Program-made: the position numbers and the translations under genes
Shown: one piece after another, positions 4,145-31,734 of the stretch
Layout of the letters: each line of letters opens with the position of its first letter
Position numbering within the stretch: the first letter of the stretch is position 1
From: an uncultured Opitutales bacterium
GTDB lineage: Bacteria; Verrucomicrobiota; Verrucomicrobiia; Opitutales; Intestinicryptomonadaceae
Direction of reading: 5' to 3'
DNA length: 32,000 bases
NCBI GenBank assembly: GCA_934660865.1
Contig: CAKUIA010000006.1
Coordinates: forward strand, 60,001 to 92,000
The notes under the pieces: generated by a model
What the model saw: the letters and a program-made list of their open reading frames with translations, nothing else
What the model was told of the DNA's origin: nothing
Database searches by the model: none

Positions 4145-4232
<88 letters not shown>

Positions 4233-4282: not shown

Positions 4283-4453
4283 CTTATGACACAACACCCC
4301 TGTTTGTAAATGCTTCATCATCAGGGTTCAACTGGTGCGTTTCACGCTCAGATGTGCGACCAAACAACAACCTTGTCTCCGCAAAATCCGTTGAGGACGA
4401 AACTATTAAACTAACAAAATTGGATATTTTTGAGCCTTATTTTAATAATAATC

Positions 4454-4492: not shown

Positions 4493-5650
4493 ATGGCGAA
4501 GATTACAAAGAGATATTGTGGAGGTCGAAAATCTCCGTATCAACTTACTTGGTGTGAACAAGGAAGCCGTCATTCGCGTTTCTTTGAAACGGAGCGCGAT
4601 CGCGACGAATTCCTTCGGGCAAACGACTATTTGGAGAAGTCGTCTTTCCAATCCCTGATGAAATTGGATATGGACACGATTTCCGATATTGCCCGAATCG
4701 AATCTATGCGGGGTAAAATTACATTCCGCGAAATATGGGAATTTTGGGAACGAAACCATACGGCGAAACGCGTTCTTAAATTGTGGGACGCCTGCGACGA
4801 ATACCTGCGGGATATGCAGGCAAACGCAAAGGTAATCCACTCCCATTTCATTCACGTCAGGCGAATTTTGGAAGTGCTTGTCGAATCGTTCGGAGAACGT
4901 CAGGTTGAAGACATAACGCGCGACGAACTTGAAAGCTGGCTAAAAAACCTGCCCTACGCGCCTATTACCGTGAAAAACTACCGTTCGTGCCTTTGCGCCA
5001 CTTGGAGATGGTTTGAAAAACACGAGCTTGTCTCAAAGAACGTTGCAAAACTCATCGACTGCCCGAATATCGAAATGGGTGAAATCGGCATTCTTACTGT
5101 TGAAGAGACCGAAAGGCTCTTGCGGGCGAACGAAAAGATAGACCCCGAAGTTTGCGGGCTTATGGCGTTGGGGCTTTTTGCGGGAATGAGAAGCTCGGCA
5201 ATAGCGAGAGTCGCCTACGACGAAATTACAATGCGGCAAGGCATTTTGACTCCCGCCGAAAAGACCAAGAAAAATAGGCGCAACTACATCGAAAACCTGC
5301 CCGACAACCTCTGGGCTTGGCTCGAACGAACTCCAAAGACAGCCTTCGGTTGGTGTGAACGCAAATGGAAGAAGCGCAAGGAAACGGCATTGAGACGCGC
5401 GGGGCTTTTGATAAACGGCGCACAGTTGAAAGTTCCCGATGAAAACGGCAAATTCCCCAAAAAGAAGATTCCGCCGAAAAACGCGTTTAGACACAGCTTT
5501 GCAAGCTATCACGTCGCTTGGAAGCGCGATTTCCAAGATACGGCGTTGATAATGTCGCACCAAGGCACGGACATTCTATTCAAGCACTATCGCGGAATTG
5601 CCACAAAGGAAAACGCCGAGAGGTATTTTAATATTTACCCCTTGGACTAG
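4493..5650 (+). CDS. int: Tyrosine recombinase / phage integrase
   Basis: 385 aa. The C-terminal catalytic region reads AFRHSFASYHVAWKRDFQDTALIMSHQGTDILFKHYRG (R...HxxR...H/W...Y pattern). It has an SAM-like N-terminal domain. Its position next to a tRNA fits an integrase. Confidence 0.92.
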   Translation: MAKITKRYCGGRKSPYQLTWCEQGSRHSRFFETERDRDEFLRANDYLEKSSFQSLMKLDMDTISDIARIESMRGKITFREIWEFWERNHTAKRVLKLWDACDEYLRDMQANAKVIHSHFIHVRRILEVLVESFGERQVEDITRDELESWLKNLPYAPITVKNYRSCLCATWRWFEKHELVSKNVAKLIDCPNIEMGEIGILTVEETERLLRANEKIDPEVCGLMALGLFAGMRSSAIARVAYDEITMRQGILTPAEKTKKNRRNYIENLPDNLWAWLERTPKTAFGWCERKWKKRKETALRRAGLLINGAQLKVPDENGKFPKKKIPPKNAFRHSFASYHVAWKRDFQDTALIMSHQGTDILFKHYRGIATKENAERYFNIYPLD

Positions 5651-6737
5651 AATTGTAGTCGTCTTCAATGACATCGAGTTCAAAGAGAGGTTTTGCGTAG
5701 GTTATTCTTGTCCCTCTCGCTCGATGTCTTGATTCAACTTCTTGGGTACAAATTTTTCCATCTCGCGATTGGTTGTATTCAATTTCCTGATAAATCCCAA
5801 ACGCATCTTCATCTTTAAATTTTCTAAAAAAATTTCGCAACTCTTTAAGTCTATTTTTTAATGTTGGAGAATATAGCAGTCTATGCTCGTTTTTAGACTT
5901 CGCAAATTTAAATAAAGCTGTCCAAGACTCTTTTGCACACTGTTGTCGAGAATTATAAAATTCAGGAATATCAGAACATTTAAGAGTTAAAGAAAATGGT
6001 GTATTTCTTACGGTAAATCTTATTTTTGAGGCTTCTATAATAGTAATATGCAAGTCGGAAATATCCTTATGCTTCATTGTCTTTTTCAAATCTTCCAAAT
6101 TAAATTCTTGCTTTTGACGAGTTCCTTTAAAATTCAAAAGATATTTTATGTTTCCACCAATCAACCCTTTATTCGACAATGAAAACAGCTCTGTGATATG
6201 GCAATCAATCCCTGTATATTCAAGAAGAAATTTTTTCATGTATTCAGGGAGTGAAGAATGTCTAAATCTAATCAAAAAAGGTCGAACTCCGCCTTTCAAA
6301 AATGGTAATATTGAGATAGGAAGATTAACCTCATTAAAACAGACAAAAATAGCATACTTGTAGTCTAAGAATAGTGTTCCGAGGCAGTATCCATCAGTGT
6401 AGTTATCTAACTTTACCACCGTAGATCCTAATTTCAGCAGTTTTGAAATTTCGCTTATGAATTTTAATTCATCAAATTTCCATAAGCGAACTTCTGCTCT
6501 TTGAAATTCCTTGGGGTCAGAAGTATCTTCGTTAATAAAAAAGACAGAATCACTCTCGATAGAAGTTCTTAGGTAAGCAGAGTTAGCGCACACTACTCTT
6601 TGGGCAAAATCGTCCAAAGAAAATAAATAGTTTTCCTTAATGAAATCAAGGTCTACCCCGAATCTTTCTCTTAAAGAAATTATCGGAGCAACTTTATTAT
6701 CGCTATGCGCTAACCAGTTGCAAATCTTGCTTAGCAT
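5628..6737 (-). CDS. Hypothetical protein (369 aa), AT-rich cargo gene 2 of 2
   Basis: Long ORF in a low-GC segment (18 G+C in line 6001-6060). It overlaps the upstream cargo gene by 35 nt. Its 3' end overlaps the integrase 3' end by 23 nt, convergently. I recognise no Walker, nuclease or other motif. Confidence 0.7.
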   Translation of the reverse strand: MLSKICNWLAHSDNKVAPIISLRERFGVDLDFIKENYLFSLDDFAQRVVCANSAYLRTSIESDSVFFINEDTSDPKEFQRAEVRLWKFDELKFISEISKLLKLGSTVVKLDNYTDGYCLGTLFLDYKYAIFVCFNEVNLPISILPFLKGGVRPFLIRFRHSSLPEYMKKFLLEYTGIDCHITELFSLSNKGLIGGNIKYLLNFKGTRQKQEFNLEDLKKTMKHKDISDLHITIIEASKIRFTVRNTPFSLTLKCSDIPEFYNSRQQCAKESWTALFKFAKSKNEHRLLYSPTLKNRLKELRNFFRKFKDEDAFGIYQEIEYNQSRDGKICTQEVESRHRARGTRITYAKPLFELDVIEDDYNSSPRGKY

Positions 6738-7899
6738 TCGCTTCTTTCTTTGAAGATTTTAAACTGTCAACACAAATACCGTTAATCACCAAAACCCTTT
6801 CTATGATGGCATGGTCGCAATATGGTGGATATATTGCCTTTTTTTCACTAGAAATGGTAATTGTTTTTTCTTTGTCTTCACCTGAAAAAAGTATTCGAAA
6901 CTTCAAATATTCCACATCAAAACATCCTACCGATTCGCTTCGAGTGCGCATATAATTCAAAGCGTCTTTTTGAGATGTAAATGTTATCGTATCGTTTGTG
7001 TATATATCAGTTTTTACCCGAATCTCTGTGAGTCTAAAGTCTTTGATATAATCTCTAAATTCTCCAAGTTGAAGTGAAAATATCGGGGATAACACGACGT
7101 TAAGAGAAAATTTATTACTTAAAATAAAAACTTTATCATCACCGAAAAATGCGTATCCAAAAATGGACTTATATTTATTCTCTAAACGTATCGTTGGCTC
7201 ACTTAAATAAATTCCAATTTCACCCGTTTTCTTGTCAAAGGATAAAATATCCTCTATTTCTGAACGTATTATTACGATTGTTGATTCGTTCCCCTCAATT
7301 ACAGGCTCTCGTCTCAATGTCGAACCGTGCAAAATATGAAAATACAAAGTTCCTTTTATATCATGCTGAAATACATCGACCTTTTTCCCTTTGTTGTTAT
7401 TTTCAAGCCATATTTCAAGTTGATGCTCAAGATTTGTTATTTTTTCTTGAGGCAATGCGCACAAGTTTTCTTTCATAAATTTCGGCTTGTAAAATGTAAA
7501 TGCGTGTTGCGTACGAACCTTTACTTCCGAGTGTAATCGCATAGCCAATGGTTTATTTACACACCAGATTTTTGCAGCCAAAACTCCTTCGTCTCCCAAT
7601 TCCGCTTCTCCGATTTTTGAGAGTTCTCCAAAAATCCTATCGTGCATTCTCCCCTTTATGAGTGAATTTATGTAAAAGAACGCATCCAAAATATCTTGCG
7701 GGACACTTGAGGTATTATCTCGAATCCACTTAGCAACAGAATTACAATTGAAATATTTCTGCTCATCTTCTTCCCATAAACCAAGATTCATAAGCTCAAT
7801 CTTTATCGGATTAAGAATGGTTTTCAAATATTTTGTGGGAATGCGTTTCAGCGATGTTGTTGTAAGAAATTGATTAAATGCGCTCATAAAGCCTTTCAT
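6703..7899 (-). CDS. Hypothetical protein (398 aa), AT-rich cargo gene 1 of 2
   Basis: Long ORF with the same low-GC composition and strand as 5628-6737. It has a helical N-terminus and then a beta-rich region. No recognisable domain. Confidence 0.75.
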   Translation of the reverse strand: MKGFMSAFNQFLTTTSLKRIPTKYLKTILNPIKIELMNLGLWEEDEQKYFNCNSVAKWIRDNTSSVPQDILDAFFYINSLIKGRMHDRIFGELSKIGEAELGDEGVLAAKIWCVNKPLAMRLHSEVKVRTQHAFTFYKPKFMKENLCALPQEKITNLEHQLEIWLENNNKGKKVDVFQHDIKGTLYFHILHGSTLRREPVIEGNESTIVIIRSEIEDILSFDKKTGEIGIYLSEPTIRLENKYKSIFGYAFFGDDKVFILSNKFSLNVVLSPIFSLQLGEFRDYIKDFRLTEIRVKTDIYTNDTITFTSQKDALNYMRTRSESVGCFDVEYLKFRILFSGEDKEKTITISSEKKAIYPPYCDHAIIERVLVINGICVDSLKSSKKEANAKQDLQLVSA

Positions 7900-8218
7900 T
7901 GTAAAGTTGTTAGTTCAATACGGTAACATTACGCAAAATTGAAATTACCATATCAAACATTGTAAAAAACCGTCAGTGATTCTCATATTGGAGATAATTG
8001 AGATTTATGTAAATCCAAATATTCGAATAAATGCAAGTATTCCAACAACCTATAATTCAGCGTGTTAAAAATCTAAATGCGGATAAATGAAAACTGAAAG
8101 ATAACTATCCTAGGTCTAGGTGCGACACGGGTTCAACAAAAAAACAAAGAACTCGGCGTTTCACCCAAAATACCAATCACCGCGTCGCTTCGGGGAAACG
8201 CATCGGACACGAAAAGCA

Positions 8219-8683
8219 ATGGAAACCATACGCGACTCTGCGGAATTGACGAATCGGGTTTTGCGCCTTGAAGAGGTAATCAGGGCGCAAAACGACCTGA
8301 TAGTCGATTTGACGGAGCGCATAGGAGAAACATTCGCGAAACAGGCTTTTTCGGTCAGGGATTTGACGAAGCGTTGGCAATGCTCGGAAACGTGCGTTAG
8401 GCGCATAGTTGAATCGCACAAGCTGAAACTGCTCAGAGGCCCTAACGGGCTTCCGCGTTCGCCCATTGCCGTGGTTCGTAGTTCGGTTCTCGACTACGAA
8501 AACGGAAACACGCTTCTTAAATTCCATAAAAGGAGAACGAAGCCCGCGCCCTCTTGGGCGGAAAATCCGTTTTTATCGACTCCGAAACTCCGTCCCGCAG
8601 TGTCCGACAGACGAGTTCGCAGATTGGGAGACCCTATATGCGAATCAGCTCAGGAAAAATCACCCGCCCACAAAAAGGCGTAA
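8219..8683 (+). CDS. HTH DNA-binding protein (excisionase/MerR-like), first gene of the rightward early operon
   Basis: The ORF track starts at GTG 8120; I prefer ATG 8219 (METIRDS...). Candidate HTH: FSVRDLTKRWQCSETCVRRIVESHKL. The C-terminal ~45 nt overlaps the next gene and looks low-complexity. Confidence 0.55.
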   Translation: METIRDSAELTNRVLRLEEVIRAQNDLIVDLTERIGETFAKQAFSVRDLTKRWQCSETCVRRIVESHKLKLLRGPNGLPRSPIAVVRSSVLDYENGNTLLKFHKRRTKPAPSWAENPFLSTPKLRPAVSDRRVRRLGDPICESAQEKSPAHKKA

Positions 8684-15495: not shown

Positions 15496-16089
15496 CAGAC
15501 GCAACTTTCAATCGCTTCAAAAATCAACGAACTTTATACGCAAGCCGAGCAGTTCTCGAAACAGGCAAAGGATACAGCCTCGCAGGCAATATCCCTTGCC
15601 GTCGAGTGCGGCAGGCTTTTGAACGACCAAAAGAAAGCCGTCGGACACGGCGCGTGGCTTGGTTGGCTTAAAGAAAATTGCCCGAATATTTCCGAGAGAA
15701 CCGCGCAAAAGTATATGCGCCTTTCCCGCAAGGTCTGCGAGCTTGAAGACTCTTCAAAAACGAATACGGATTCGGATTTGCCGACTACATCTTCCGAAAA
15801 CGTTTCAAAGCTCCTCGACGGTTCGCCCAAGACTTTAACGCAAGCCTACATTGCGGCGGGGGTAATTCCAGAGCCGAAAAAGAATGAAGTAAACGCGGGT
15901 GTATCCGAGGCTACAATCACGTTTACGCGACATATCGACGCCCTTGTTCTTTGGTATAAAAAGCGCACCGAACACGACCCGATTGAAAATTGGCAGCCGA
16001 ATGTTCGCGGGCTTCTGATAAACGAACTCCGTCCGTGGGTGGAAATCTACAACGAACTTCTCGACCTACAAAACGGTGTTGACGAATAA
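15493..16089 (+). CDS. DUF3102-like protein
   Basis: The motif ECGRLLNDQKKAVGHGAWLGWLKENCPNISERTAQKYMRLS matches the DUF3102 pattern as I recall it (HG-W..WL ... S-RTAQ-YM). No SD; preceded by the TTGACA-N13 junction motif. Confidence 0.65.
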   Translation: MQTQLSIASKINELYTQAEQFSKQAKDTASQAISLAVECGRLLNDQKKAVGHGAWLGWLKENCPNISERTAQKYMRLSRKVCELEDSSKTNTDSDLPTTSSENVSKLLDGSPKTLTQAYIAAGVIPEPKKNEVNAGVSEATITFTRHIDALVLWYKKRTEHDPIENWQPNVRGLLINELRPWVEIYNELLDLQNGVDE

Positions 16090-16095
16090 TGCTTT

Positions 16096-16166
16096 TGCAG
16101 GGTGGTCTAACGGTAGGACATCGGGCTCATAACCCGAGGATTGGCGGTTCGATTCCGCCCCCTGCA
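16096..16166 (+). tRNA. Phage-encoded tRNA-Met (anticodon CAT) with initiator-like anticodon stem; no encoded CCA
   Basis: Hand-folded. Acceptor TGCAGGG/CCCTGCA (U1:A72). D-arm GTCT-AACGGTA-GGAC. Anticodon arm TCGGG-CTCATAA-CCCGA, with three consecutive G:C pairs as in tRNA-fMet. T-arm GGCGG-TTCGATT-CCGCC. Confidence 0.9.
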
Positions 16167-16170
16167 TTTT

Positions 16171-16608
16171 CTATTCTTCAATATATTTTCTTTTTCTTAA
16201 TTCATTAAATTCTAACTCAGTCCATGGTTTAACATAGAGCGATTTAATGTAGTTTGAATTTGTGTTACTTTCGAGATTATCAATAGCTTTAATAGAAATA
16301 TTCCACCCAATCGCAATATTTGCAGTGAGTGGAATCAATTTACCAGAGGCTAATTCCAGCGAAAAACGACCGATTTTAATTTTAGCTCCTTTTAATAATT
16401 TTTTAGAAAAGGTTGGGTCTATTTTGTTTAAAATATCAGAAATATCTGTTCCATCGAAATTTTTTTTGCTAGGGACTAAAAGTAGAATTTCTGCGATTTC
16501 TTCCCCTGGATTGTCTTCTTCAATCTTTTTTAGAATCTGTAACAAGTCGGTATAATTACCAGTACCAAAAGAACCATCACCTTTAAAAACAAATTTATTT
16601 ATAATCAT
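16171..16608 (-). CDS. Hypothetical protein (145 aa), AT-rich antisense insert (moron)
   Basis: ORF with SD AAAGGAA and its own strong promoter. It has low GC, lies opposite to the phage operons, and sits directly after the phage tRNA. No recognisable domain. Confidence 0.65.
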   Translation of the reverse strand: MIINKFVFKGDGSFGTGNYTDLLQILKKIEEDNPGEEIAEILLLVPSKKNFDGTDISDILNKIDPTFSKKLLKGAKIKIGRFSLELASGKLIPLTANIAIGWNISIKAIDNLESNTNSNYIKSLYVKPWTELEFNELRKRKYIEE

Positions 16609-16632
16609 ATAGTATTCCTTTCAATGTTTACA

Positions 16633-16662
16633 ATTGTAAAAAAGAAATCTATTATTTGTCAA
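16633..16662 (-). promoter_or_regulatory. sigma70-type promoter TTGACA-N18-TACAAT for 16171-16608, with a 14-bp perfect palindrome over the -10
   Basis: The minus strand reads TTGACA (16662-16657), an 18-nt spacer, then TACAAT (16638-16633). The palindrome TTTACAATTGTAAA (16627-16640) overlaps the -10 and could be an operator. Confidence 0.55.
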
Positions 16663-16719
16663 TAACATATAGCAGGGACGTTCGGCAGACCGCTTTCTTC
16701 TTACGACAGGTATTTTTTG

Positions 16720-16833
16720 AATTTCCCACTTTTTTTGAAATGGCAGGCTCGCAAGTGCCGTAAAATCGGTGTTTGCGGGCTTTTTTTATTGCGGGAAATC
16801 GGTGGGAAATCGGCAAAATATTTCCCACTTTTG
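16720..16833. repeat. Short repeats upstream of terS (candidate cosB/terS-binding sites)
   Basis: AATTTCCCACTTTT occurs at 16720-16733, and ATTTCCCACTTTT at 16820-16832. Tandem GGGAAATCGG occurs at 16793-16802 and 16804-16813. A related AAAATCGGTG lies at 16762-16771. GTGGGAAA is the reverse complement of TTTCCCAC. Confidence 0.4.
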
Positions 16834-16853
16834 ACAGTTTTCTTTCCTATATG
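16829..16853 (+). repeat. Junction motif copy: TTTTGACA-N14-ATG (terS)
   Basis: TTGACA at 16831-16836, ATG at 16851. No SD. Confidence 0.4.
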
Positions 16854-17465
16854 GACGAAAACATTAAAAACAGGATTCTTGAAGCCAATCTTCAAAATAT
16901 CGCAAAGAAAGTTGCCGCAGGGAAAACTCTCACAAGTTCGGAACGCGCGCTTATCGAAGTGCAAAACGGAGAATCCGAAATTAGCAAAACGTACGCCGAA
17001 TCCATCGTTGAACTTGCGGAGATTCTCGGCGTTTCGCGTAGAACTATCGGTAATTGGCGCAAAATCAAGGGCTCGCCCAAACCTACCGCGAACGGCAAAC
17101 ACAACATTTCCAAATGGCGGCAGTTCATCAAGAAGAACGGATTGAAAGAAGCTGATACCCCAGAAGACGAGGTTTTAAAGTCTCGCAAACTGCTTGCGGA
17201 AGTAAAACAGGCGGAAATAAAGCTGAAAGTGATGGAAGGCACTTATGTGCCGATTGAGAAAGTCCGCGAGGTTTGGACAATGCACATCGGGCAAATCAGG
17301 AACATTCTCGAGAGCCGATTTTTAAACGAACTTCCGCCGATACTTACCACACTCGACGCAATCCAGATTCGCGAGAAAATGCAGGAAGTTTTGGACGAGA
17401 CGTATTCCGCGCTTTCCGTCGCGGCAGAATCAATCAAAGAGCCTGTCGATATTGAAGAATCTTAA
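16851..17465 (+). CDS. Terminase small subunit, lambda Nu1-like architecture (N-terminal HTH plus coiled coil)
   Basis: I prefer ATG 16851 (MDENIKNR...). HTH: IVELAEILGVSRRTIGNWRKIKGSP. Then KWRQFIKKNGL, and a helical segment SRKLLAEVKQAEIKLKVMEGTYVPIEKV...ILESRFLNELPPIL that parallels Nu1 as I recall it. The call rests on motifs and architecture only. Confidence 0.55.
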   Translation: MDENIKNRILEANLQNIAKKVAAGKTLTSSERALIEVQNGESEISKTYAESIVELAEILGVSRRTIGNWRKIKGSPKPTANGKHNISKWRQFIKKNGLKEADTPEDEVLKSRKLLAEVKQAEIKLKVMEGTYVPIEKVREVWTMHIGQIRNILESRFLNELPPILTTLDAIQIREKMQEVLDETYSALSVAAESIKEPVDIEES

Positions 17466-19321: not shown

Positions 19322-19957
19322 GCAGAAGACAAAGCACGCATTTTGGCGGACGGAATTGAAGTTTGGTGCGCCTACGACAAACTCGTAAAGGTTGACGAAC
19401 TTATTCCCCACCCGAAAAATCCCAACACCCACCCGCAAAACCAGATAAAGATTCTGGCGCAGAATATCCGCTACCACGGTTGGCGGCACCCGATTGTGGT
19501 TTCAAAACTTTCTGGCTACATTGTGGCTGGACACGGCAGACTCGAAGCCGCGAAAGAATTGGGCGTTTCAATCGTCCCCGTAGAATTTCAAAAATTTTCT
19601 TCCGAAGACAACGAACTTGCCGTTCTTGTCGGCGACAACCGCTTGGCGGAGCTTTCGAGCATAGACCTAAACGGGCTTCAAGACATCGTAGACGGTTTCA
19701 AGGAGACGAGCTTCGATACAATCTTGGCAGGTTTTGAACCAGCCGATTTGGACGCTCTGCTTGACGAAAAAACTCCCGATTTTGAAGACGAAGCCGAAAG
19801 GGAGCTTACCCAATCGGAAGTTACAATTCAGGCTGGGAACTATCGATTCCGCATAAGTCAGGAAGATTTCGGTGTATGGATTGACAAATTAAAGCAGGAA
19901 GTCGGCTTCGACAAGGAATCGGTAATTGCCGAACTTCGCAGGAGGCTTTCCATATGA
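19319..19957 (+). CDS. ParB-like N-terminal (ParB/Srx-fold) domain protein
   Basis: I prefer ATG 19319 over the TTG 19298 in the track. ParB-like core: ELIPHPKNPNTHPQNQIKILAQNIRYHGWRHPIVVSKLSGYIVAGHGRLEAAKELG. No SD; preceded by the junction motif. Confidence 0.8.
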   Translation: MAEDKARILADGIEVWCAYDKLVKVDELIPHPKNPNTHPQNQIKILAQNIRYHGWRHPIVVSKLSGYIVAGHGRLEAAKELGVSIVPVEFQKFSSEDNELAVLVGDNRLAELSSIDLNGLQDIVDGFKETSFDTILAGFEPADLDALLDEKTPDFEDEAERELTQSEVTIQAGNYRFRISQEDFGVWIDKLKQEVGFDKESVIAELRRRLSI

Positions 19958-21465
19958 TAAAAATTGAGCCTCTTTCGGCGGTAAACCCGTCGACCTACAA
20001 CCCGCGAACCGCCGACCCGAAGCGGCTTGATTTGATTGAGCTTTCGCTTCGCAAATTGGGATTCATTGCGCCGATATATGCCGACGCAAACGGCGAAATT
20101 CTTTCGGGGCACCAACGCCATTTTGTGGCAACGCGAATGGGCGTAAAAAACGTTCCAGTTTTCAGGATTCCGCCGATGGAATTGGAGAAGCGCAAGGCGT
20201 TGAACATTGTCTTTAACCGCGCCACTAACGACGGCGACATTTGCCAGACACCAGAAAAGGCTAAGCGCATTCTGGAAAGTCTAAATCTCTCGGAACTCGC
20301 CGAAAATATTCAAGACAAGGAGTTGGAGAGCAGAGACTTTTTCAGATGCGCCTACCCTGCGAAGGTGTCGGTTGCAAAACTTTGCAGGATAAATTCGGGA
20401 CGATGGATTCAATACGCAAAGAGCATTGCCAGAACACTTCGCAAGGCTGGAATTGTTATGCCGATTGTCTGCACGCCAGACGGCAAAGTTATAAACGGAA
20501 TCGGAAGACTCGAAATGCTTGCCGAACTCAAAGTAGATACTTGCGATGTGGTCTACATTTCCGAAGACGAGGCGAAATTTGCCGACGCTATGATGAACCT
20601 GCTTACGATGGAGTTCGACATTCACACGCGCTACGCCGATTTGCTCCGCTATAATTCGTTCCGACGCGCCCGCAGAGTTCGCGAAGAATTGGGACACGGC
20701 TTTGTGTTCGCCGTTCACGGGAATAAGCCCTGCCACAGTTTCGATATTTTCGATAAGTCGCAACAGGCGAAATGGCGCAAGGAGCACGGAAATTCAATTC
20801 TCGACTTCGGCGCGGGACACCTTACGGAGACGAACATTTTGAAGTCTGCGGGCTTTGATTGTGTTCCGTTTGAGCCGTATCACATAAGCGTTTCCGAAAT
20901 CGACAAGGAAAAGTCGCTTGAGATTTCGAGGGAATTTCTAAACGCCGTCGCAAATGGCAAGGAATTTACAAGCATATTCATTTCAAGCGTGTTAAACTCA
21001 GTTCCTTTCGCAAGGGATAGAGAACACATAGTTTGCATTTGCGCCGCGTTGTGTCGTCCGTTTACAAAACTCTACGCCTGCGCTTCGTCGACGGCAGAAA
21101 CCGGTTATAGGCAGGTAAACGGCAAGGCATTTCATAATGAATCGAATGCGGGCAATATAGCGTTTCGCCTTGAATACGAATCGGGAGTTCGCATTGGCGA
21201 CTTTCAGGACAAGCCGAAAGTCCAGAAATACCACACAAAAAAGGAATTCTACGAACTCTTTTCGCCGTTTTTTAGAAACATTCAGATTTCGGAAATGACG
21301 GGCAACGTAAACGCCAAATGCGAAAACGTCAGACGCATTCCGTGGGAACGCCTCGAAGAAGCGTTGAGATTTGAATTCAATCTGCCTTATCCCGACGGCT
21401 CTCGTATGGGATTGGTAGACGAGGCAATTTCGGCATTCAAACACCGCTATGAAATACTTGGTTGA
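19954..21465 (+). CDS. Fusion protein: two ParB-like domains plus a C-terminal class-I SAM-dependent methyltransferase domain
   Basis: First ParB-like domain: NPRTADPKRLDLIELSLRKLGFIAPIYADANGEILSGHQRHFVA. Second, degenerate copy: MPIVCTPDGKVINGIGRLEMLAELK. Methyltransferase motif I ILDFGAGHLTE, then FEPY and IFISSVLNSVP. No (D/N/S)PP(Y/F) amino-methyltransferase motif is seen. Confidence 0.8.
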   Translation: MIKIEPLSAVNPSTYNPRTADPKRLDLIELSLRKLGFIAPIYADANGEILSGHQRHFVATRMGVKNVPVFRIPPMELEKRKALNIVFNRATNDGDICQTPEKAKRILESLNLSELAENIQDKELESRDFFRCAYPAKVSVAKLCRINSGRWIQYAKSIARTLRKAGIVMPIVCTPDGKVINGIGRLEMLAELKVDTCDVVYISEDEAKFADAMMNLLTMEFDIHTRYADLLRYNSFRRARRVREELGHGFVFAVHGNKPCHSFDIFDKSQQAKWRKEHGNSILDFGAGHLTETNILKSAGFDCVPFEPYHISVSEIDKEKSLEISREFLNAVANGKEFTSIFISSVLNSVPFARDREHIVCICAALCRPFTKLYACASSTAETGYRQVNGKAFHNESNAGNIAFRLEYESGVRIGDFQDKPKVQKYHTKKEFYELFSPFFRNIQISEMTGNVNAKCENVRRIPWERLEEALRFEFNLPYPDGSRMGLVDEAISAFKHRYEILG

Positions 21466-22740: not shown

Positions 22741-23433
22741 GAATTGCATACGGACGACAGGATTATTTCGCGACAGAGCAACTGGGTGTTCGACGAACAC
22801 GTCGCGCCCGAATTCGACAAGCACGTCAGAAAGAGCGTGCCCAATTACGTTCACGTTCAGGATTTGGCGGAGACATTTTCCGACTGGTTCACATACCCCA
22901 ATTCGACTGTAATCGACTTCGGGGCTTCCACAGGCGAAACCCTGCGCAGGATAAAACGCCGCCATTCGAAAACGATCCACCTCATAGGCTACGACAATTC
23001 GCAGGCGATGATAAATCAGGCGAAAACAAAAGGCGTAGACATCATTTTTGCCGACCTCGAAAAGCCGTTTGTTCTGCCCAATTTTTCCTACGCAGTTTCG
23101 CTTTACACATTGCAATTCCTGCGCCCAGACGCGCGGAACGCGCTGTTAAAGCGCATATTCCACAGCCTTGAAAATTGCGGCGGAATGTTTGTCGTCGAAA
23201 AAGTTCTCGGCTCAACATCGCAAATGCAGGACATTTTGCAACAGCTCTATTGGGAAATGAAGGCAAAGAACGGCTTTTCGTCAGAACAAATCATCAACAA
23301 GGCGAAAGCCCTGCGCGGGTGTATGTATCCCAAAACCGTAGCCGACAACGAAGCGGAATTCCGCGCAATCGGGTTCAATTCGGAAATAGTTTTCAAAGAA
23401 TCGCAGTTCTGCGGTTGGCTGCTTACGAAATGA
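22738..23433 (+). CDS. CmoA-family SAM-dependent enzyme (carboxy-SAM synthase-like)
   Basis: 231 aa with end-to-end similarity to E. coli CmoA as I remember it. Matching segments: NWVFDEHVAPEFDKHVRKSVPNY, VIDFGASTGE, GYDNSQAMINQAK, YTLQFLRPDARNALLKRIF, GGMFVVEKV, KAKNGFSSEQII, and the final FKESQFCGWLL. Its stop overlaps the terL start (ATGA). Confidence 0.75.
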   Translation: MELHTDDRIISRQSNWVFDEHVAPEFDKHVRKSVPNYVHVQDLAETFSDWFTYPNSTVIDFGASTGETLRRIKRRHSKTIHLIGYDNSQAMINQAKTKGVDIIFADLEKPFVLPNFSYAVSLYTLQFLRPDARNALLKRIFHSLENCGGMFVVEKVLGSTSQMQDILQQLYWEMKAKNGFSSEQIINKAKALRGCMYPKTVADNEAEFRAIGFNSEIVFKESQFCGWLLTK

Positions 23434-25211
23434 AGCTTCTTCGGGATATTCTCAAAGACGCTTGGACGCCCGCCGACCGCCGAGAGCCTTGGCGTTGGTG
23501 CGAAGACCATATAAAAAGCATTCCGTATTCGCCGCTTCCAGGACCGTTCAGAAGCGAAAACTCGCCGTGGATTCGCGAAGTTATGGAGGCAATCGTTGAC
23601 CCGAAAATCCGCCTTGTCTCGATTATCGCCGCCGTCCAAAGCTCGAAGACTACAAGTCCCGAGCTTACGCTTTGCTACATAATAGCCAACCTCCCAGGAC
23701 CTTGCCTTTGGCTCGACCAGACGGACGAAGACGCAAAAGACGAGTCGGAAAGCCGCCTGCAAAAGCTTTTTGAGAGCTGCGAGCCGGTAAAAAAGCTATT
23801 TCCAAAGAACAAAAATAAACAGCGCAACTGCACAATCCACTTTTCAAACGGAATGACGCTTTGGCTGCTGGGAGCGTATAACAAGACCAATCTCCAACGC
23901 CGTTCAATCCGCTGGCTTTTCGGAGACGAAACTTGGCGATGGCCAGTCGGACATATGGCGGAAGCGGAGGCAAGAACTACGGCTTTCGGGTGGCTCGGCA
24001 AATGCGTGTTTATGAGTCAAGGCGGAGAGGAGAACGACGACACCCACCGCAAATTTGAAACAACCGATATGCGCGAATGGCACTACAAGTGTCCCAAATG
24101 CGGCAAATACATTCCCTACAAGTGGGAAAACATCGAGTGGGACGACGACTGCAAAGACGAAAACGGCGAATACGACTTTTCAAAAATCAACCATTCAACA
24201 GCCTTGAAATGTCCCGAATGCGGGGAGTATTTTGAGGATTCCGACAGAATGAGGCGCATTCTCAACAAGGACGGAAAGTTTATCGCGCTCAATCCGAATG
24301 CTTCAAAAGAAAACGTGGGCTTCCATTGGAATGCGCTCGCTTCGATGAGTTGGGGCAAGCTTGCCGAGCTTTACCTTCGCGCGAAAATTGCCGCAAGAAA
24401 GGGCGACAGCTCTTTGCTGCAACAATTCTACCAGAAACGCCTTGCTCTTGCTTGGAGGGAATTTGCCGAAGACTACCGCCTTGAAATCGCCTCTGGCAGC
24501 TATAATTCGGGGGACGTTTGGGATGAGGAAGCGGGCTTCAACAAGCTCGGTGAAATCATCGCCCCGCCTTTTGCCGAAAACGAGGTTATCGCGCCGCTTC
24601 GCATAATGTCGGTTGATGTTCAGATGAACTGCTTTTACTTGGTTGTCCGCGCTTGGAGCATTAACGGTTCGAGTCGTCTTCTATGGCACGAAAAGGTACT
24701 GACGTGGGAAGACATCGAGGAAATCCAAAAGCGTTTTAAAATTTTGGACAACCTTGTATTTGTCGACGCGGGGTATAATTCGTTTGAAGTCTACAAGCAT
24801 TGCGGGGAGCGGAATTGGATTGCGCTTATGGGCGACAACAGGGCGAACTTCTTTCACAGACTTCCGAACGGCAAGACGGTTTTGCGCTTTTACTCTCCCG
24901 TAAAGCACATATTTATTTCGCGCTACGTTAAGTGCCGTATGCACTTTTGGAGCAACCTCAACGTAAAAGACACTTTGGCGAGAATCAGGCGAAACCAGAA
25001 TCCTGCCGACGGCGCAACTTGGGAAGTGCCGACGGATATTTCCGAAGACTACTTAAAGCAAATGGAGTCCGAACACCGCATTAAAAAGGGCAACTCGTGG
25101 ATATGGGAGCAAATCGGCAACCGCCCCAACCACTACCTCGACTGCGAAGCTATGAACTGCGCAGGAGCGTTGATGTTGAAGATTGTGGGGAACAATGGTT
25201 TATATAGTTAA
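23430..25211 (+). CDS. terL: Terminase large subunit, lambda GpA family
   Basis: Start ATG 23430 (MKLLRDILKDAW...). The upstream ORF extension overlaps the CmoA-like gene and is rejected. GpA-type features: REPWRWCEDHIKSIPYSPLPGPFRSENSPWIREVMEAI, an ATPase segment AAVQSSKTT, and a zinc-ribbon YKCPKCGKY ... LKCPECGEYF. Confidence 0.9.
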   Translation: MKLLRDILKDAWTPADRREPWRWCEDHIKSIPYSPLPGPFRSENSPWIREVMEAIVDPKIRLVSIIAAVQSSKTTSPELTLCYIIANLPGPCLWLDQTDEDAKDESESRLQKLFESCEPVKKLFPKNKNKQRNCTIHFSNGMTLWLLGAYNKTNLQRRSIRWLFGDETWRWPVGHMAEAEARTTAFGWLGKCVFMSQGGEENDDTHRKFETTDMREWHYKCPKCGKYIPYKWENIEWDDDCKDENGEYDFSKINHSTALKCPECGEYFEDSDRMRRILNKDGKFIALNPNASKENVGFHWNALASMSWGKLAELYLRAKIAARKGDSSLLQQFYQKRLALAWREFAEDYRLEIASGSYNSGDVWDEEAGFNKLGEIIAPPFAENEVIAPLRIMSVDVQMNCFYLVVRAWSINGSSRLLWHEKVLTWEDIEEIQKRFKILDNLVFVDAGYNSFEVYKHCGERNWIALMGDNRANFFHRLPNGKTVLRFYSPVKHIFISRYVKCRMHFWSNLNVKDTLARIRRNQNPADGATWEVPTDISEDYLKQMESEHRIKKGNSWIWEQIGNRPNHYLDCEAMNCAGALMLKIVGNNGLYS

Positions 25212-26437
25212 ATAATTTCTCCTCGAAAATAATCTTTTATTATTTTTATATATTTATTTGGGATTCCTAGCCTTTCTCTAAACAAATTTTTCACAGGTAC
25301 AGGATTTGGATTTAATATGATTATATTTGGATATTTAGTCTTTTTGCAAAAAGCCTTTTTTAATAAATCAATTGCTCTTATATCAGTGATGGGGAAAGAG
25401 TATCCAATTACATATATTGATTCTGCTTTACTTAAATCAGATTCAGCATATTCCCATAAATTTTTAAATAATTTGCCCCAAAAATTATAACTTTTATTTT
25501 TGACTGGAGGGATAATCAGTGGAGTACTTGGCATTCCATCACTAGGATAATTACTTTCAGGAATCCAAGGAAATTTCGGTCTTACCCTGATAATAAGCCG
25601 ATCTTTAGGTGCTGTTTTTCCTTTGTCTGATAAAATATTTGGGGGATAATATCCCATAGAAAAAGGAGCATATCCTTCCATATATCTACCCGCGTACGCA
25701 GGATAAGGTTTAGTTGCGTATTCATATATCCAAACTGAATCATTTGGAGATTCTTGTATTAGTTTAAAATCTTTTGCTTCTTGATCATAGTACATAGGAG
25801 AAGTGAGCCAATTTGTTGAGCCATGTAACTTTATTAATTTTGGGGATTGTTTGAAGCTGTTTTGAGGCAACAGCCATTTATCTCGATATATACCACAAGG
25901 CGAAAAACCATATCCAAAGTCTGTTTCCCAATCAGTATCTTCTTGTAAGGCTCGATCCAATAAAGTATCCCAATTAAATGTTATTATAGTATCATCTGTA
26001 TTTATTTTTTTTAAAAATAATCTATGTGCTTTTGATGTTGGTCCATTTTGAATTTCATTTATAATCGATGAAAAAAAATAAACCAATTGTTGATAAGTTT
26101 TTGTCAATATAAGCAACTCGCTGGAAATATGTTCGCAATTTTGATCCTTTTCAATTAAGGTAAGCATTTTATATTCAATCGCAGAGTGAATTTTCTCAAT
26201 ATCTAAATCTCCTTTAAAAACTGATTCGATAGGAACATTTCTGGTCTTATGTAAATAATTCACGATGTCACCGATTATAACCCAAGGGTTTTGTGATATA
26301 TTTAATTTTTCAAAGGTAGAAAAAACCTCTGTTGCCAATGGCATTTTTTGACCAGATAAGGATTCACCATAAGACTTAGATGCTCCAGCTCCCAATATAT
26401 ATACATTCATTTCATTATTTAAGTTCAATGGATACAT
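25208..26437 (-). CDS. SIR2-like (SIR2_2 / ThsA-type NADase fold) protein, standalone, AT-rich insert
   Basis: Ordered signature: VYILGAGASKSYG; IITFNWDTLLDRAL; LIKLHGSTNW; IYVIGYSFPITDIRAIDLL. The start is ambiguous (ATG at 26485, 26437 or 26410). There are 20 G+C in line 25261-25320. Confidence 0.8.
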   Translation of the reverse strand: MYPLNLNNEMNVYILGAGASKSYGESLSGQKMPLATEVFSTFEKLNISQNPWVIIGDIVNYLHKTRNVPIESVFKGDLDIEKIHSAIEYKMLTLIEKDQNCEHISSELLILTKTYQQLVYFFSSIINEIQNGPTSKAHRLFLKKINTDDTIITFNWDTLLDRALQEDTDWETDFGYGFSPCGIYRDKWLLPQNSFKQSPKLIKLHGSTNWLTSPMYYDQEAKDFKLIQESPNDSVWIYEYATKPYPAYAGRYMEGYAPFSMGYYPPNILSDKGKTAPKDRLIIRVRPKFPWIPESNYPSDGMPSTPLIIPPVKNKSYNFWGKLFKNLWEYAESDLSKAESIYVIGYSFPITDIRAIDLLKKAFCKKTKYPNIIILNPNPVPVKNLFRERLGIPNKYIKIIKDYFRGEII

Positions 26438-26451
26438 GTAAATTACTCGAA

Positions 26452-26480
26452 TTTTTTTGACAAGTTTTATTCTTATCATG
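26452..26480 (+). repeat. Junction motif copy: TTTTTTTGACA-N15-ATG (gpW-like gene)
   Basis: TTGACA at 26457-26462, ATG at 26478. No SD. Confidence 0.4.
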
Positions 26481-26735
26481 TCCAATTACATTTACACACG
26501 CGGGTATACTGTGGCGGAGCTTGAGGCTTTGCTTGTTCGGGTAAAAGCCGAGCGCGAAAAGTATCTTCAATCGGCTTCCGATAGCGGAAGCTCGTATTCA
26601 CGCATCGCGCTTTCGGAAATCGAGAAGAAGTTCAACGGCATAATGGACGCGTTGGAGCTTCTCGCGCCCGAAAAATACCCCAAAACAAACCGCCGAATTT
26701 CCCTTAGCGGCGTAGTAGGAGGAGTTATCCAATGA
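26478..26735 (+). CDS. gpW-like head-tail joining protein (by position and size)
   Basis: 85 aa from ATG 26478. It lies between terL and portal, as lambda W does. Its stop overlaps the portal start (ATGA). No SD; the junction motif lies upstream. Confidence 0.5.
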   Translation: MSNYIYTRGYTVAELEALLVRVKAEREKYLQSASDSGSSYSRIALSEIEKKFNGIMDALELLAPEKYPKTNRRISLSGVVGGVIQ

Positions 26736-28147
26736 CGCTACGGAGGAAAATCGCCAATATGTTCTACGGAATCGGGCACGCGTTCGAGTCTGCAAAGGTT
26801 TCGCTTTCGCGCGGCAACCCAAACACGCTGAACCCTACGGACGCGAGCGCGGAACTGCCCTCATGCACAAGAAGCGAACTTGTCCGCAAAGCCAGATACC
26901 TCGAAAAGAATTCGGGGCACATTCGTGGAATTCTGCGCGATTTGAAAGTCTACGGAATCGGCAAGGGAATCTACCCTAACGCGAAATCCGACAACCACGC
27001 TTGGAATAAGCAGGCGGAGGATTTCTTCTTCAAATGGAGCAGACATTGCGACATCACAAACCGCTTTTCTTGGCGCGAATGCCAGTCGATGATTCTGCGC
27101 GCGCTTATCGTCGACGGCGAAATCTTCGTAATAAAAACATTCGACAGCTTCGGCGTTCCCAAAATCCAGCTAATAGAAAGCCACCGCCTAATGTCGCCAA
27201 GCGACTCTGATAGCGGGCGCATTGTTGACGGAATGGAGTTCGACAAATTCGGGAGGGTTAAAAATTACTACTTCGTTGTAGGCGATGATTCGCAAACCAC
27301 CAAAGTTCCCGCAAACGCAGTTTTGCATATCTTCGATCCTGAACGCGTTTCGCAGGCGCGGGCTTACCCGCAAATTCAACATTCGATAAACGACGTAATC
27401 GACAGAAAGGAAATTCTCGCTCTCGAAAAAAAGAAAGTGAAGGCGATTTCCGACATCGTCCATATCCTGAAAGGCGGTCAGGGAATGACGCTTGACGGAG
27501 ACTATAAAGTTGACGTAGGCAACCGCCCAGAGGGCACGTCTACGGCAACACTAAACCGAATATTGGGTGGCAAAAATATCCGAATCGACCCCGACGAAAG
27601 CATAGACGTTCACGAAAGCAATACTCCGTCTCCCACATTTTCGGGCTTTTTGACGGAACTTGACCGTTCTGGAAGTCTCGGCGTTCTCCCCTACGAATTT
27701 GTCATAGACCCGTCGAAAATCGGCGGAGCTTCGGTGCGTCTCATTGCCTCGAAAACACAACGATACATCGACGACATCGCGCAAATCATAGACGAACGCT
27801 TCAACGATGCCGTATGGTTCTTCGTTATCGGCTGGGCAATCGACAGCGGAACTTTACCCGCCCAAAATTGGTGGTGGTATTGCTCTTGGACTCACCCGCG
27901 CAAACTCACCGTCGACGCGGGACGAGAGGAACAGCAAAACCGCGCAAATGTCGAAATGGGCTTGAAGACGCTCGAAGAAAGCTTCGCCGAATGCGGGCAG
28001 GATTTCGAGGACGAAATGCGCACGCGCGCCGACAACGCCCGCTTCATTATGCGCTTGGCTGGAATCCCCGACAGCGAGCCGATTCCGCTTTATATGCTCT
28101 ACAAGGTAAACGGCACACAGGTAATCGAAAAATCCGATGACAAATAA
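26732..28147 (+). CDS. Portal protein, lambda (gpB) family
   Basis: 471 aa. The N-terminal region SELVRKARYLEKNSGHIRGILRDLKVYGIGKGIYP is typical of Phage_portal_2 as I recall it. It sits between terL/W and the S49 protease. Confidence 0.85.
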   Translation: MTLRRKIANMFYGIGHAFESAKVSLSRGNPNTLNPTDASAELPSCTRSELVRKARYLEKNSGHIRGILRDLKVYGIGKGIYPNAKSDNHAWNKQAEDFFFKWSRHCDITNRFSWRECQSMILRALIVDGEIFVIKTFDSFGVPKIQLIESHRLMSPSDSDSGRIVDGMEFDKFGRVKNYYFVVGDDSQTTKVPANAVLHIFDPERVSQARAYPQIQHSINDVIDRKEILALEKKKVKAISDIVHILKGGQGMTLDGDYKVDVGNRPEGTSTATLNRILGGKNIRIDPDESIDVHESNTPSPTFSGFLTELDRSGSLGVLPYEFVIDPSKIGGASVRLIASKTQRYIDDIAQIIDERFNDAVWFFVIGWAIDSGTLPAQNWWWYCSWTHPRKLTVDAGREEQQNRANVEMGLKTLEESFAECGQDFEDEMRTRADNARFIMRLAGIPDSEPIPLYMLYKVNGTQVIEKSDDK

Positions 28148-30861: not shown

Positions 30862-31320
30862 CTATGATACTCGAAAGTTTTTCGCAGAAGTTGGTGTAAT
30901 CTGAAATATAATCCCATCGTGCCTAATCAAATACAGCACATTTAGGGAGTCATTTGTTATTAGAATATCGTCCGATGATGGATACCAAATATACTTAAAA
31001 TAGTCGCAGAAATCCGCATAATTAAAAATATCCATAGGGCATTCATAACCCCATATAACGATTATATTATCGGATTGGTCAGATAGTAGATTCAAAGACT
31101 TGATAGAAAAGTCTTCTGATGTTGCGTCCGTATTTTCAATATATTTTCCAGCTTCCTGAACTTTGTTAAAATCAGATATATCTAAATTATAACGCAACGA
31201 CAGTTTTCTTGTAATCGATTCGCTTTCCTTTTTTGATAATGTATTGAATGAAGGAAATTTCGATTGTGTTTCATTTTCAAATATTGAAATTTTGAATGAG
31301 TCCACTCTTCTTATCCCCAA
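30862..31320 (-). CDS. Hypothetical protein (~147-152 aa), AT-rich, third gene after the PIN toxin
   Basis: There is no ATG start. Candidates are TTG 31320 or GTG 31305; the GTG is preceded by GGGGA at 8 nt. C-terminal motif: FCDYFKYIWYPSSDDILITNDSLNVLYLIRHDG. It lies 12 nt downstream of the PIN gene stop. Confidence 0.5.
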   Translation of the reverse strand: MGIRRVDSFKISIFENETQSKFPSFNTLSKKESESITRKLSLRYNLDISDFNKVQEAGKYIENTDATSEDFSIKSLNLLSDQSDNIIVIWGYECPMDIFNYADFCDYFKYIWYPSSDDILITNDSLNVLYLIRHDGIIFQITPTSAKNFRVS

Positions 31321-31332
31321 TTTCGTTTGCCT

Positions 31333-31734
31333 TTACAAAAACTCCAACGCTTCGGCGGGAGAAAGAACCGTTATGCCGAGCTTTTTCATAAGCGGTTTGG
31401 GATAGTGTTTTGCATTTCCCGTAACGATTATTTTATCCTGCGTTGCAAGTGCCGCTTCTATGAAAATTTTGTCGTCAATATCGGGAAGTTCTTCGGAAAT
31501 ATGCACGGGTTCTATCGGGTCAGTTCCCATTAAATCCACAAGAAATATGTTTACGCATTCCTCGGTGAGGTGAAATCGCGGGCGGGACAAAACTTCGAGA
31601 TATTCGCAGATTATTCGGTTGTCGTAAACCGCTGTAAAATTTTCGCCCATTTTCGACATCAGCAAATGCGGCGAACCGTTTGTGCTCAAAAACGCCGAAA
31701 CAACGACATTTGTATCAATTACAAAAGTCTTCAT
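31333..31734 (-). CDS. PIN-domain toxin (VapC-like, PIN_3 type)
   Basis: The N-terminus MKTFVIDTNVVVSAFL holds the first acidic PIN residue. Later motifs: DIDDKIFIEAAL and IIVTGNAKHY. It overlaps the upstream antitoxin by 4 nt. Confidence 0.85.
   Translation of the reverse strand: MKTFVIDTNVVVSAFLSTNGSPHLLMSKMGENFTAVYDNRIICEYLEVLSRPRFHLTEECVNIFLVDLMGTDPIEPVHISEELPDIDDKIFIEAALATQDKIIVTGNAKHYPKPLMKKLGITVLSPAEALEFL

Follow-up and report, generated by a model that had tools for sequence, protein, structure and literature searches.

A variable two-gene unit in the immunity-region position of an Opitutales prophage as a candidate lysogeny-control module

A prophage in the window, the 32,000-nucleotide stretch of Opitutales DNA analyzed here, carries two overlapping genes, A and B, that separate its integrase gene from its early replication operon. 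We consider it possible, with a probability of roughly 45%, that the pair serves this prophage as a non-canonical, variable module for lysogeny control (an immunity region). It would be a self-contained bicistronic unit, with 232 bp of regulatory DNA belonging to it, placed where CI and Cro are found in canonical temperate phages. A and B would be expressed in the lysogen and act jointly as a complex that binds nucleic acid, acts on the divergent promoter region, and takes part in setting or sensing the lysis-lysogeny state and the specificity of immunity. In phages of the window type, where no canonical repressor was found, A/B would be the repressor system itself, and in other family members it would be the partner of a LexA/CI-type repressor. 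The module would be an inherited core part of a widespread temperate-element family, would diverge very rapidly and would pass between related phages as a complete unit.

The pair occupies the usual lysogeny-switch position in hundreds of related temperate phages, and neither family is represented by a Pfam, NCBIfam, PHROGs or PADLOC model despite at least 305 A clusters. If A/B is a lysogeny switch, many seemingly repressor-less gut and environmental prophages gain a candidate repressor and the A/B type would predict immunity groups. A Rex-like exclusion system would instead be an unusual instance of a defense module that is fixed in a phage lineage. Either reading concerns a defined, testable unit (B, A and the 232 bp) with natural allele swaps and cultured hosts that carry the pair, and whether it serves regulation or protection merits testing. 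A broader joint claim is put forward tentatively, at less than even odds: A/B may be an undescribed, widespread two-protein temperate-phage system, either a switch that replaces CI/Cro or a lineage-fixed, Rex-like exclusion system found across phyla, that has no relation to known protein families and diversifies by swaps of the whole cassette.

Coding status and composition of the gene pair

The element is a genuine Opitutales prophage. Genes for primase, small and large terminase, portal, protease and major head protein were detected, and the similarity of a related metagenome-assembled genome without the prophage to the window ends at about position 4408. A tRNA-Ser (4145..4232) adjoins and precedes the integrase. 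The open reading frame at 4493..5650 (+) had been called an integrase, and its match to PHROG 1 (E 5.8e-17) identifies it as a divergent tyrosine integrase with no Pfam match at E ≤ 0.01. It is convergent with B and is 73-91% identical across sister phages. The first early gene (8120..8683, +) encodes 187 amino acids from a conserved GTG and is called as 139 amino acids in relatives; its alignment with them has a conserved start and in-frame indels. A helix-turn-helix-like segment was seen in this protein by eye. The early operon continues with AAA_24, exonuclease, DEAD helicase and primase genes. Elsewhere in the prophage, other AT-rich islands on the minus strand contain a SIR2-like and a PIN_3 open reading frame.

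The original prediction described two minus-strand frames, 6703..7899 (398 amino acids) and 5628..6737 (369 amino acids), that overlap each other by 35 nt, with a 23-nt overlap between the second and the 3′ end of the integrase frame at 4493..5650 (+). The frames and both overlaps were confirmed from the coordinates. Only the start of A was revised. The ATG at 7899 is not kept among relatives and is ACG in the L005 lineage, and for this reason it was replaced by the ATG at 7887, which is conserved and preceded by a ribosome-binding site, GAAAGG. Gene A is assigned to 6703..7887 (−) and its 394-residue product begins with MSAFNQ, as do its homologs. Gene B (5628..6737, −) encodes a fast-evolving partner of 369 residues.

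The count of 18 G+C in positions 6001-6060 is exact, and the foreign composition attributed to the cassette is supported by a GC content of about 34% compared to about 47% in the rest of the prophage (33.7% for 5651-8119 versus 47.4% for 8120-32000). GC3 is 0.29-0.32 in A and B versus 0.55-0.62 in backbone genes. A cassette of such strongly atypical composition might be degenerate, non-functional foreign DNA in which long reading frames are incidental, and the B gene is N-terminally truncated in L010 while the bulk of the cassette is deleted in L015/L016. Conservation and selection together effectively rule this explanation out. When the cassette was shuffled 300 times, the longest stop-free run averaged 86 codons and never exceeded 223, far below the 394 and 369 observed, and the overlapping two-gene layout is retained in hundreds of homologs. 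The dN/dS values measured against L001 are 0.09 for A and 0.23 for B. The open reading frames are not due to chance, and A and B are confirmed as real genes under purifying selection.

Exchange of the pair together with its regulatory DNA

Comparison of the window with the sister phages L184, L186 and L187 by blastn revealed sharp breaks in similarity at 5640 and 8118, which delimit an exchange unit at 5641..8118 that contains B, A and regulatory DNA. The breakpoints coincide exactly with the integrase stop codon and the start of the first early gene, indicating that the regulatory DNA is swapped along with A/B. Backbone proteins are 55-91% identical between the window and its sister phages; A is 22-25% identical and B is 25% identical or undetectable. 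The slot, the breakpoints and this difference in divergence correspond to the position and exchange pattern of an immunity region. The breaks also support the original description of an integrase-proximal slot that holds a horizontally exchanged unit, and whole-module exchange between related phages would explain the foreign, AT-rich composition found here.

All four sister-phage loci with enough flanking sequence (L183, L184, L186 and L187) hold a very diverged A/B pair in the slot, and the L005 lineage also carries a homologous pair there. L194 belongs to the same lineage as L184. L015/L016 were considered as a case of alternative cargo in the slot and rejected because they represent the remains of a prophage that has lost a large internal segment by deletion. 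The pair had been proposed as orphan accessory defense cargo. The operon, the foreign composition, the slot and the exchange all stand, but the slot content is homologous in the four sister phages, the pair is linked to one backbone in 33 of 37 well-flanked clusters, and no known defense family matches. Patchy presence and unrelated genes in the slot of close phages, the pattern of a moron, were not found among these relatives. By these comparisons the pair behaves as a core gene and not as a moron.

The regulatory DNA (7888..8119, 232 bp, 30% GC) lies between A and the first early gene and presumably carries divergent promoters. It is specific to the A/B type: it aligns with L005, which has the same A type, but no alignment is obtained with the sister phages L184, L186 or L187. 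Each A type has its own set of short repeats in this DNA, and no repeat is common to all types. A candidate operator, CATTTATCCGCA, is present as an exact copy at 8078..8089 (−) that is invariant in six of six phages of the same type, and a degenerate second copy, CATTTATTCGAA, is at 8022..8033 (−). L005 has two copies of the motif, at 8645 and 8734. The motif is only a lead because it was derived from the same region, and it is not enriched genome-wide; both properties were counted against lysogeny control. The first early gene also argues against this reading: it does not co-vary with the A type, its product remaining at about 63% identity both in phages with A at 78% identity and in those with A at 25%.

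Distribution and genomic neighborhood of the A/B family

The A family has at least 305 representatives (clusters at 50% identity) at E ≤ 1e-3. A B homolog was detected by iterative HMM searching in 175 of 179 A-bearing loci, and it is on the strand of A and at the A 3′ end in every locus checked. The modal overlap across the family is 35 nt, the median B length is 369 residues, the diverged pairs of L017 and L022 have the same overlapping layout, and two A-B fusion proteins (P0062 and P0125) were found. These loci bear out the proposed two-gene operon with its conserved overlap and establish that the pair co-occurs in other genomes. The idea that A and B are paralogs was ruled out by hhalign. 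The full family alignment is too diverse for pattern scanning.

The A sequences come from predicted prophages (IMG/VR contigs) and from isolate genomes, which annotate both families solely as "hypothetical protein." The hosts belong to the Verrucomicrobiota, Alphaproteobacteria and Planctomycetota, and cultured carriers of the pair include Oceanicella actignis, Chelatococcus composti, Sphingobium wenxiniae and Rubripirellula obstinata. Searches with blastn and tblastn retrieved no homolog from 72,556 plasmids or 50,697 deposited phages, no close homolog was found in scans of GTDB representative genomes or IMG/VR, and a literature search found no description of the pair. The elements are temperate and carry an integrase or serine recombinase together with AAA_24, DEAD helicase and primase genes. 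The homolog neighborhoods, whose examination had been suggested as a way to detect enrichment near defense islands, show this one temperate-element backbone, with its hallmark genes accompanying the pair in 33 of the 37 well-flanked clusters.

The A/B unit is found in either orientation on one backbone, which indicates that it brings a promoter with it. Most family members have the pair not divergent from but co-directional with the downstream early genes (a sigma-like gene, AAA_24 and helicase), an arrangement that was counted against lysogeny control. The usual family companions (sigma-like, u119, u139 and LexA-like genes) are absent from the window lineage.

An alternative reading is an early lytic function tied to the replication and recombination module, with A/B expressed first after infection or induction as, for example, an origin-binding initiator and partner like lambda O/P, as a host-takeover system or as an anti-defense system. 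AAA_24, DEAD helicase and primase are the sole consistent companions of A/B across phyla, and in much of the family the pair heads a co-directional run into the replication genes. Replication initiators are typically encoded by two overlapping genes that are mosaic among related phages and may contain an AT-rich origin, which also fits the cassette. Several observations make this function improbable. The cassette contains no iterons or repeat arrays, only two-copy chance repeats being present in 5500-8200, and in the window, as in three of four sister-phage loci, the pair is oriented away from the replication genes, neither of which is expected of an O/P-type initiator. The gap from B to the next gene is an ordinary intergenic 50-290 nt, and the same replication module runs without A/B in the relative L189. 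Where a LexA-like repressor gene precedes A by 19-58 nt, co-expression in the lysogen would be expected, and this would be harmful for an initiator.

The same two neighborhoods point to a lysogeny-control region. L189, a more distant relative without A/B, has a canonical CI/Cro pair in the slot: besides an integrase, a CI-like gene of the XRE type and a divergent Cro-like gene precede its AAA_24, helicase and primase genes. In 7-8 of 62 clusters the gene directly upstream of A, separated from it by 19-58 nt and on its strand, encodes a LexA/CI-type S24 repressor, and A/B cannot be the sole repressor where this gene is present. Other loci have an ImmA-like protein (L035) or a winged-helix-like protein upstream of A. 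No CI/LexA-type open reading frame was detected in the window with three probe sequences, and the window lineage has no LexA-like gene near A.

Domain searches and comparison with known systems

The observation that neither protein has a recognizable motif holds. Single-sequence searches with the window A and B proteins gave no match in Pfam, NCBIfam, PHROG or PADLOC, and searches of PDB sequences with single sequences and family profiles gave insignificant matches only, including one to a designed repeat protein. A match between the A N-terminal domain and MarR (E 0.27) was not significant and was rejected. The structure models were built from alignments of 5-6 close homologs and are too poor for fold testing, with a pLDDT of 60 for A and 39 for B. 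The A model has an N-terminal helical domain at approximately residues 11-125 (numbered from the 7899 start) followed by a beta-rich C-terminal part, and Foldseek with this low-confidence model found no match, including none to RexA/RdgC.

Family members were also searched. Pfam had no match among 53 A-family members, and among 51 B-family members it had weak winged-helix matches in four (Rrf2, Trans_reg_C and HTH_Crp_2), which were counted for lysogeny control. Probing the B family with PhoB, OmpR and IscR found nothing, and hhalign detected no match between the A or B family and local alignments of the LexA-like, sigma-like, u139 and u119 proteins. A CI/LexA-type signature, either a helix-turn-helix or winged helix with S24 or a small XRE HTH_3 protein, is not found in A or B; the lambda CI, LexA and 434 probes match the separate gene that adjoins A and not A/B. 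Two further points were counted against lysogeny control: no DNA-binding domain is demonstrable in the window A or B, and both proteins are far larger than ordinary repressors.

The lambdoid immunity region consists of cI, cro and their operators, and it is replaced as a block in heteroimmune swaps such as imm434 and imm21. A/B resembles it in lying between integration and replication genes, in its divergent orientation relative to the early operon of the window prophage, in its block exchange with regulatory DNA and far greater divergence than the backbone, and in the true CI/Cro pair that occupies its slot in L189. The differences are that A and B are about 390 and 370 residues with no detectable HTH_3 or S24 domain, that no Cro partner is swapped here and the first early gene stays conserved, and that many A/B pairs are co-directional with the early genes. 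Repressor and anti-repressor protease modules of the ImmR/ImmA type adjoin integrases in ICEBs1 and phi105, and A/B shares with them two overlapping genes next to an integrase, divergence from the rest of the element and a regulator-partner logic. Unlike ImmR/ImmA, A and B gave no match to HTH_3 or to the COG2856 (HEXXH) peptidase domain, and in L035 the ImmA-like gene is separate and upstream of A. An integrase-proximal, AT-rich unit antisense to the lytic genes also resembles prophage morons and integrase-side defense hotspots. Defense hotspots normally hold varied, unrelated systems, whereas each sister phage has homologous genes in the A/B slot.

The main rival to lysogeny control, and the explanation closest to the original proposal, is a Rex-like superinfection-exclusion or anti-phage pair that would be expressed in the lysogen, sense an incoming phage and block or abort its infection, with the extreme divergence reflecting an arms race. 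We regard it as rather unlikely. Its attraction is the hypervariability and exchange of the whole unit, and the window pair is antisense to the lytic genes and AT-rich like the SIR2-like and PIN_3 islands. No positive evidence for a defense role emerged. PADLOC (PADLOC-DB 2.0.0) was empty for the window A/B and for 51 B-family members, and 53 A-family members gave two isolated weak matches, each to a single member (PDC-M01B at 2e-4 and LmuC at 0.015). The PDC-M01B lead was rejected because it concerns one member and the name occurs only in surveys of Firmicutes. The presence of one family in the slot of every sister phage, on one backbone across phyla, also argues against exclusion, as does the lack of homologs in the plasmid and deposited-phage collections. 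B has no convincing transmembrane helix (maximum 19-residue Kyte-Doolittle score of 1.66, in a segment that contains N and E) and is apparently soluble, unlike the membrane protein RexB. The family profiles retrieved no RexA/RdgC chain from the PDB, the fold search with the poor A model gave no such match, and no PDB chain resembles A or B in sequence. Among lambdoid phages rexAB occurs sporadically, whereas A/B spans the whole element family.

The likeness to lambda RexA/RexB lies in the organization: A/B is a two-gene, immunity-region unit that is 3′ of the CI/LexA-type repressor gene in the 7-8 of 62 clusters, and the order of LexA-like repressor, A and B follows the logic of cI-rexA-rexB (PMC11077077). 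Mycobacteriophage RexA homologs are 337-372 residues long, a size near that of A and B (PMC11077077). RexA is reported to bind DNA without sequence specificity and to be able to tip the lysis-lysogeny switch toward lysis (PMC11077077), so that one module could serve in both exclusion and lysogeny control.

The A/B pair within the prophage

The element is a real prophage, as confirmed by its genes for primase, terminases, portal, protease and major head protein. Its integrase (4493-5650, plus strand) is positioned right after a tRNA-Ser gene and is divergent, being recognised only by PHROG integrase profiles (PHROG 1, E = 5.8e-17) with no Pfam match at E ≤ 0.01. Similarity to a related Opitutales MAG ends at about position 4408, which places the prophage end there. 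Gene A was first read as a 398-residue minus-strand ORF (6703..7899) and gene B is a 369-residue minus-strand ORF (5628..6737). The coordinates of the original prediction were reproduced: A and B overlap by 35 nt, and the 3' end of B overlaps the convergent ORF at 4493..5650 by 23 nt. The length of A was revised. An alignment of six related phages identifies ATG 7887, behind a GAAAGG ribosome-binding site, as the conserved start, so A has 394 residues rather than 398. The foreign, AT-rich composition was borne out, with exactly 18 G+C at 6001-6060 and 33.7% GC in the cassette versus 47.4% in the remaining prophage; GC3 is 0.29-0.32 in A/B versus 0.55-0.62 in neighbouring genes. The longest stop-free run in the shuffled cassette averaged 86 codons and reached a maximum of 223, so the lengths of A and B are not due to chance. 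Comparison with a 96-98% identical relative gave dN/dS values of 0.09 (A) and 0.23 (B), which point to purifying selection on both genes.

Loci related to the pair (80 metagenome and 80 IMG/VR) were fetched via a nine-sequence A subgroup, and genes were called by a simple ORF rule that makes start codons and small neighbouring ORFs approximate. Of the 165 loci that extend far enough past A, 144 have a same-strand ORF starting at the stop codon of A; this ORF has a median of 369 residues, and its commonest overlap with A is 35 nt, the same as in the window. An HMM seeded with the window's B and iterated to convergence on A-bearing loci gave 179 matches, 137 of which were ORFs already flagged immediately 3' of A; the listed exceptions were same-strand ORFs overlapping the 3' end of A. 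Co-occurrence of the pair in other genomes, on which the original prediction depended, was found in 175 of 179 A-bearing loci. Profile drift is possible in principle, and is argued against by the single match per locus, on the strand of A and at its 3' end wherever checked. Independently of the HMM, pairwise BLAST (E = 2e-10) matched B from the window with the gene that follows an A homolog of 25% identity. The overlap is retained in a diverged pair from an AT-rich contig, where A is 46% and B 40% identical, and two representatives are A-B fusions. Across these loci the A/B pairing is strictly conserved.

A widespread family exchanged as a unit

As single proteins, A and B had no match in Pfam, PADLOC, PHROGs, NCBIfam or any PDB sequence, in agreement with the earlier failure to recognise a motif in either. 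A word-indexed search returned five close clusters per protein, all within the same prophage backbone. Exhaustive HMMER searching with A and B concatenated gave 305 A representatives at E ≤ 1e-3, of which 85 reached E ≤ 1e-10; most are 380-410 residues long and align almost end to end, at 20-28% identity. Single-sequence searching with B found close relatives only. The pair thus appears to have no known family, yet is no orphan. Among 53 diverse A-family and 51 B-family members, Pfam and NCBIfam were blank except for a few weak, isolated matches, and PADLOC gave no meaningful match. Four of the 51 B-family members had weak matches, all to winged-helix families, and probing with wHTH sequences neither localised nor confirmed such a domain. 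A search for A-B homology indicated that the two are not paralogs. Isolate genomes with the pair (Oceanicella, Chelatococcus, Sphingobium, Humitalea, Magnetofaba and Rubripirellula) name both proteins "hypothetical protein", and neither 72,556 plasmids nor 50,697 deposited phage genomes contained a homolog. In the main clade, which is largely alphaproteobacterial, B proteins contain a Cys-rich motif, PCP..G.GCP..VV.H...AVC...P..C (B-family alignment A6; e.g. L138 9169-10272), that looks like a zinc-binding site and is absent from the window's B.

Sister phages were found in IMG/VR via the window's AAA_24 and integrase genes. Their backbone proteins are 55-91% identical to the window's, and in every one an A/B pair fills this slot, with 22-25% identity to the window's A and at most 25% to its B. 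In three of them (L184, L186 and L187), nucleotide similarity ends at the integrase stop codon (~5640) and returns at ~8118-8131, the start of the first early ORF. L005, a locus with the window's A type, aligns continuously through the cassette with a backbone ~71% identical at the nucleotide level. The positions of the breaks define an exchange unit of B, A and 232 bp of regulatory DNA (7888..8119). Each A type has regulatory DNA with short repeats of its own, and comparison across types found no repeat motif common to all. The unit occurs in both orientations on the same backbone, being co-directional with the early operon in the L184/L194 lineage; by this comparison it must carry its own promoter. 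The window's integrase family also adjoins A/B in L184/L194 and in a further locus, L022. A 298-residue Endonuclease_NS-domain gene is inserted between integrase and A in the L184/L194 lineage (L184 1572-2468, L194 6826-7722). Just past the integrase in the sister lineage of L005 (12442-15800), L006 and L007 are two MethyltransfD12 genes and a 471-residue gene, possibly an island of restriction-modification type on the side of the attachment site.

A proposed place in lysogeny control

The recurrent neighbours of A/B, several identified by eye from sequence, are a large serine recombinase with DUF2924-like and ParB/KorB-like companions, a sigma-70-like protein, AAA_24, DEAD helicase, primase-helicase and a PD-(D/E)XK nuclease. 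Of the 37 A clusters whose flanks extend for at least 3 kb in each direction, 33 have at least one of these hallmark genes. A and B form a tight bicistron, set off from the genes around it by ordinary intergenic gaps. One element (L020 796-8203) adjoins a 1401-residue Eco57I/N6_Mtase-like protein and a 1070-residue SNF2 helicase; its order of A, B, the companion gene u119 and sigma is intact despite this defence-type neighbourhood.

In 7-8 of 62 A clusters, the gene directly preceding A, on its strand and separated from it by 19-58 nt, encodes a LexA/CI-type S24 repressor (E against LexA as low as 1e-38). Other loci have an ImmA-like peptidase or a wHTH-like protein in this position. A search of the window with three probe sequences gave no CI/LexA-type ORF. 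L189, a more distant relative (AAA_24 46%, helicase 50% identical to the window's), is without A/B, and its slot contains the integrase, an XRE CI-like gene and a divergent Cro-like gene, followed by AAA_24, helicase and primase. This evidence places A/B in the lysogeny-control (immunity) region of a widespread temperate-element family, as a core module that evolves fast and is swapped as a cassette. An early replication or host-takeover role is improbable: there are no iterons, the window's pair faces away from the replication genes, A/B elsewhere is apparently co-expressed with repressors, as predicted from gene layout, and the same replication module runs in L189 without the pair.

We infer the function of A/B solely from position, linkage and evolutionary pattern. 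The most likely reading, with a probability of roughly 0.45, is a non-canonical lysogeny-control pair that would act on its own 232-bp regulatory DNA to control lysogeny. Its main rival, a Rex-like exclusion system, is somewhat less likely; the order of repressor, A and B in loci with an upstream repressor mirrors lambda cI-rexA-rexB, but B, unlike RexB, is not a membrane protein, and a link to RexA was found neither by sequence nor by fold, using poor structure models built on shallow alignments. RexA is itself a DNA-binding protein that can push the switch in the lytic direction (PMC11077077), so the lysogeny-control and Rex-like readings may overlap.

Other AT-rich islands

A better candidate than A/B for true defence-type moron cargo, judged by sequence, is a 425-residue minus-strand ORF (25208-26485) with a weak SIR2_2 match (E = 1e-3, below the gathering threshold). 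It lies in the window's most AT-rich island (29-36% GC), with the large terminase gene (23175-25211) on one side and the portal gene (26732-28147) on the other. A minus-strand PIN_3 domain ORF (31333-31734, E = 1.7e-15) and an adjoining 152-residue minus-strand ORF (30862-31320) occupy an AT-rich patch in a layout resembling a toxin-antitoxin pair. This region is kept at 93% identity in a deleted prophage remnant (L015). The remnant, represented by L015 and L016, has lost everything between window positions ~6004 and ~29648 and now bears SLFN_AlbA_2/HATPase_c_4, Fic and ADP-ribosylglycohydrolase genes. It also encodes a chimeric 204-residue ORF, P0010 (L015 10001-10615, L016 5924-6538), in which the final ~125 residues of B, at 95% identity to the window's, follow an unrelated N-terminus. 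This N-terminus contains GIKTGCNEAFII, a stretch reminiscent of the C-terminal part of type IIG restriction-modification or BREX methyltransferases. The early region ends with a phage-borne tRNA-Met (16096-16167, plus strand); after it comes an AT-rich stretch (37% GC, within 16001-17000) containing a 145-residue minus-strand ORF (16171-16608) with no family match. Upstream of the packaging genes, a 503-residue plus-strand protein with a ParB-like N-terminal domain (19954-21465) matches phrog_5475 (function not assigned) at E = 3.5e-102.
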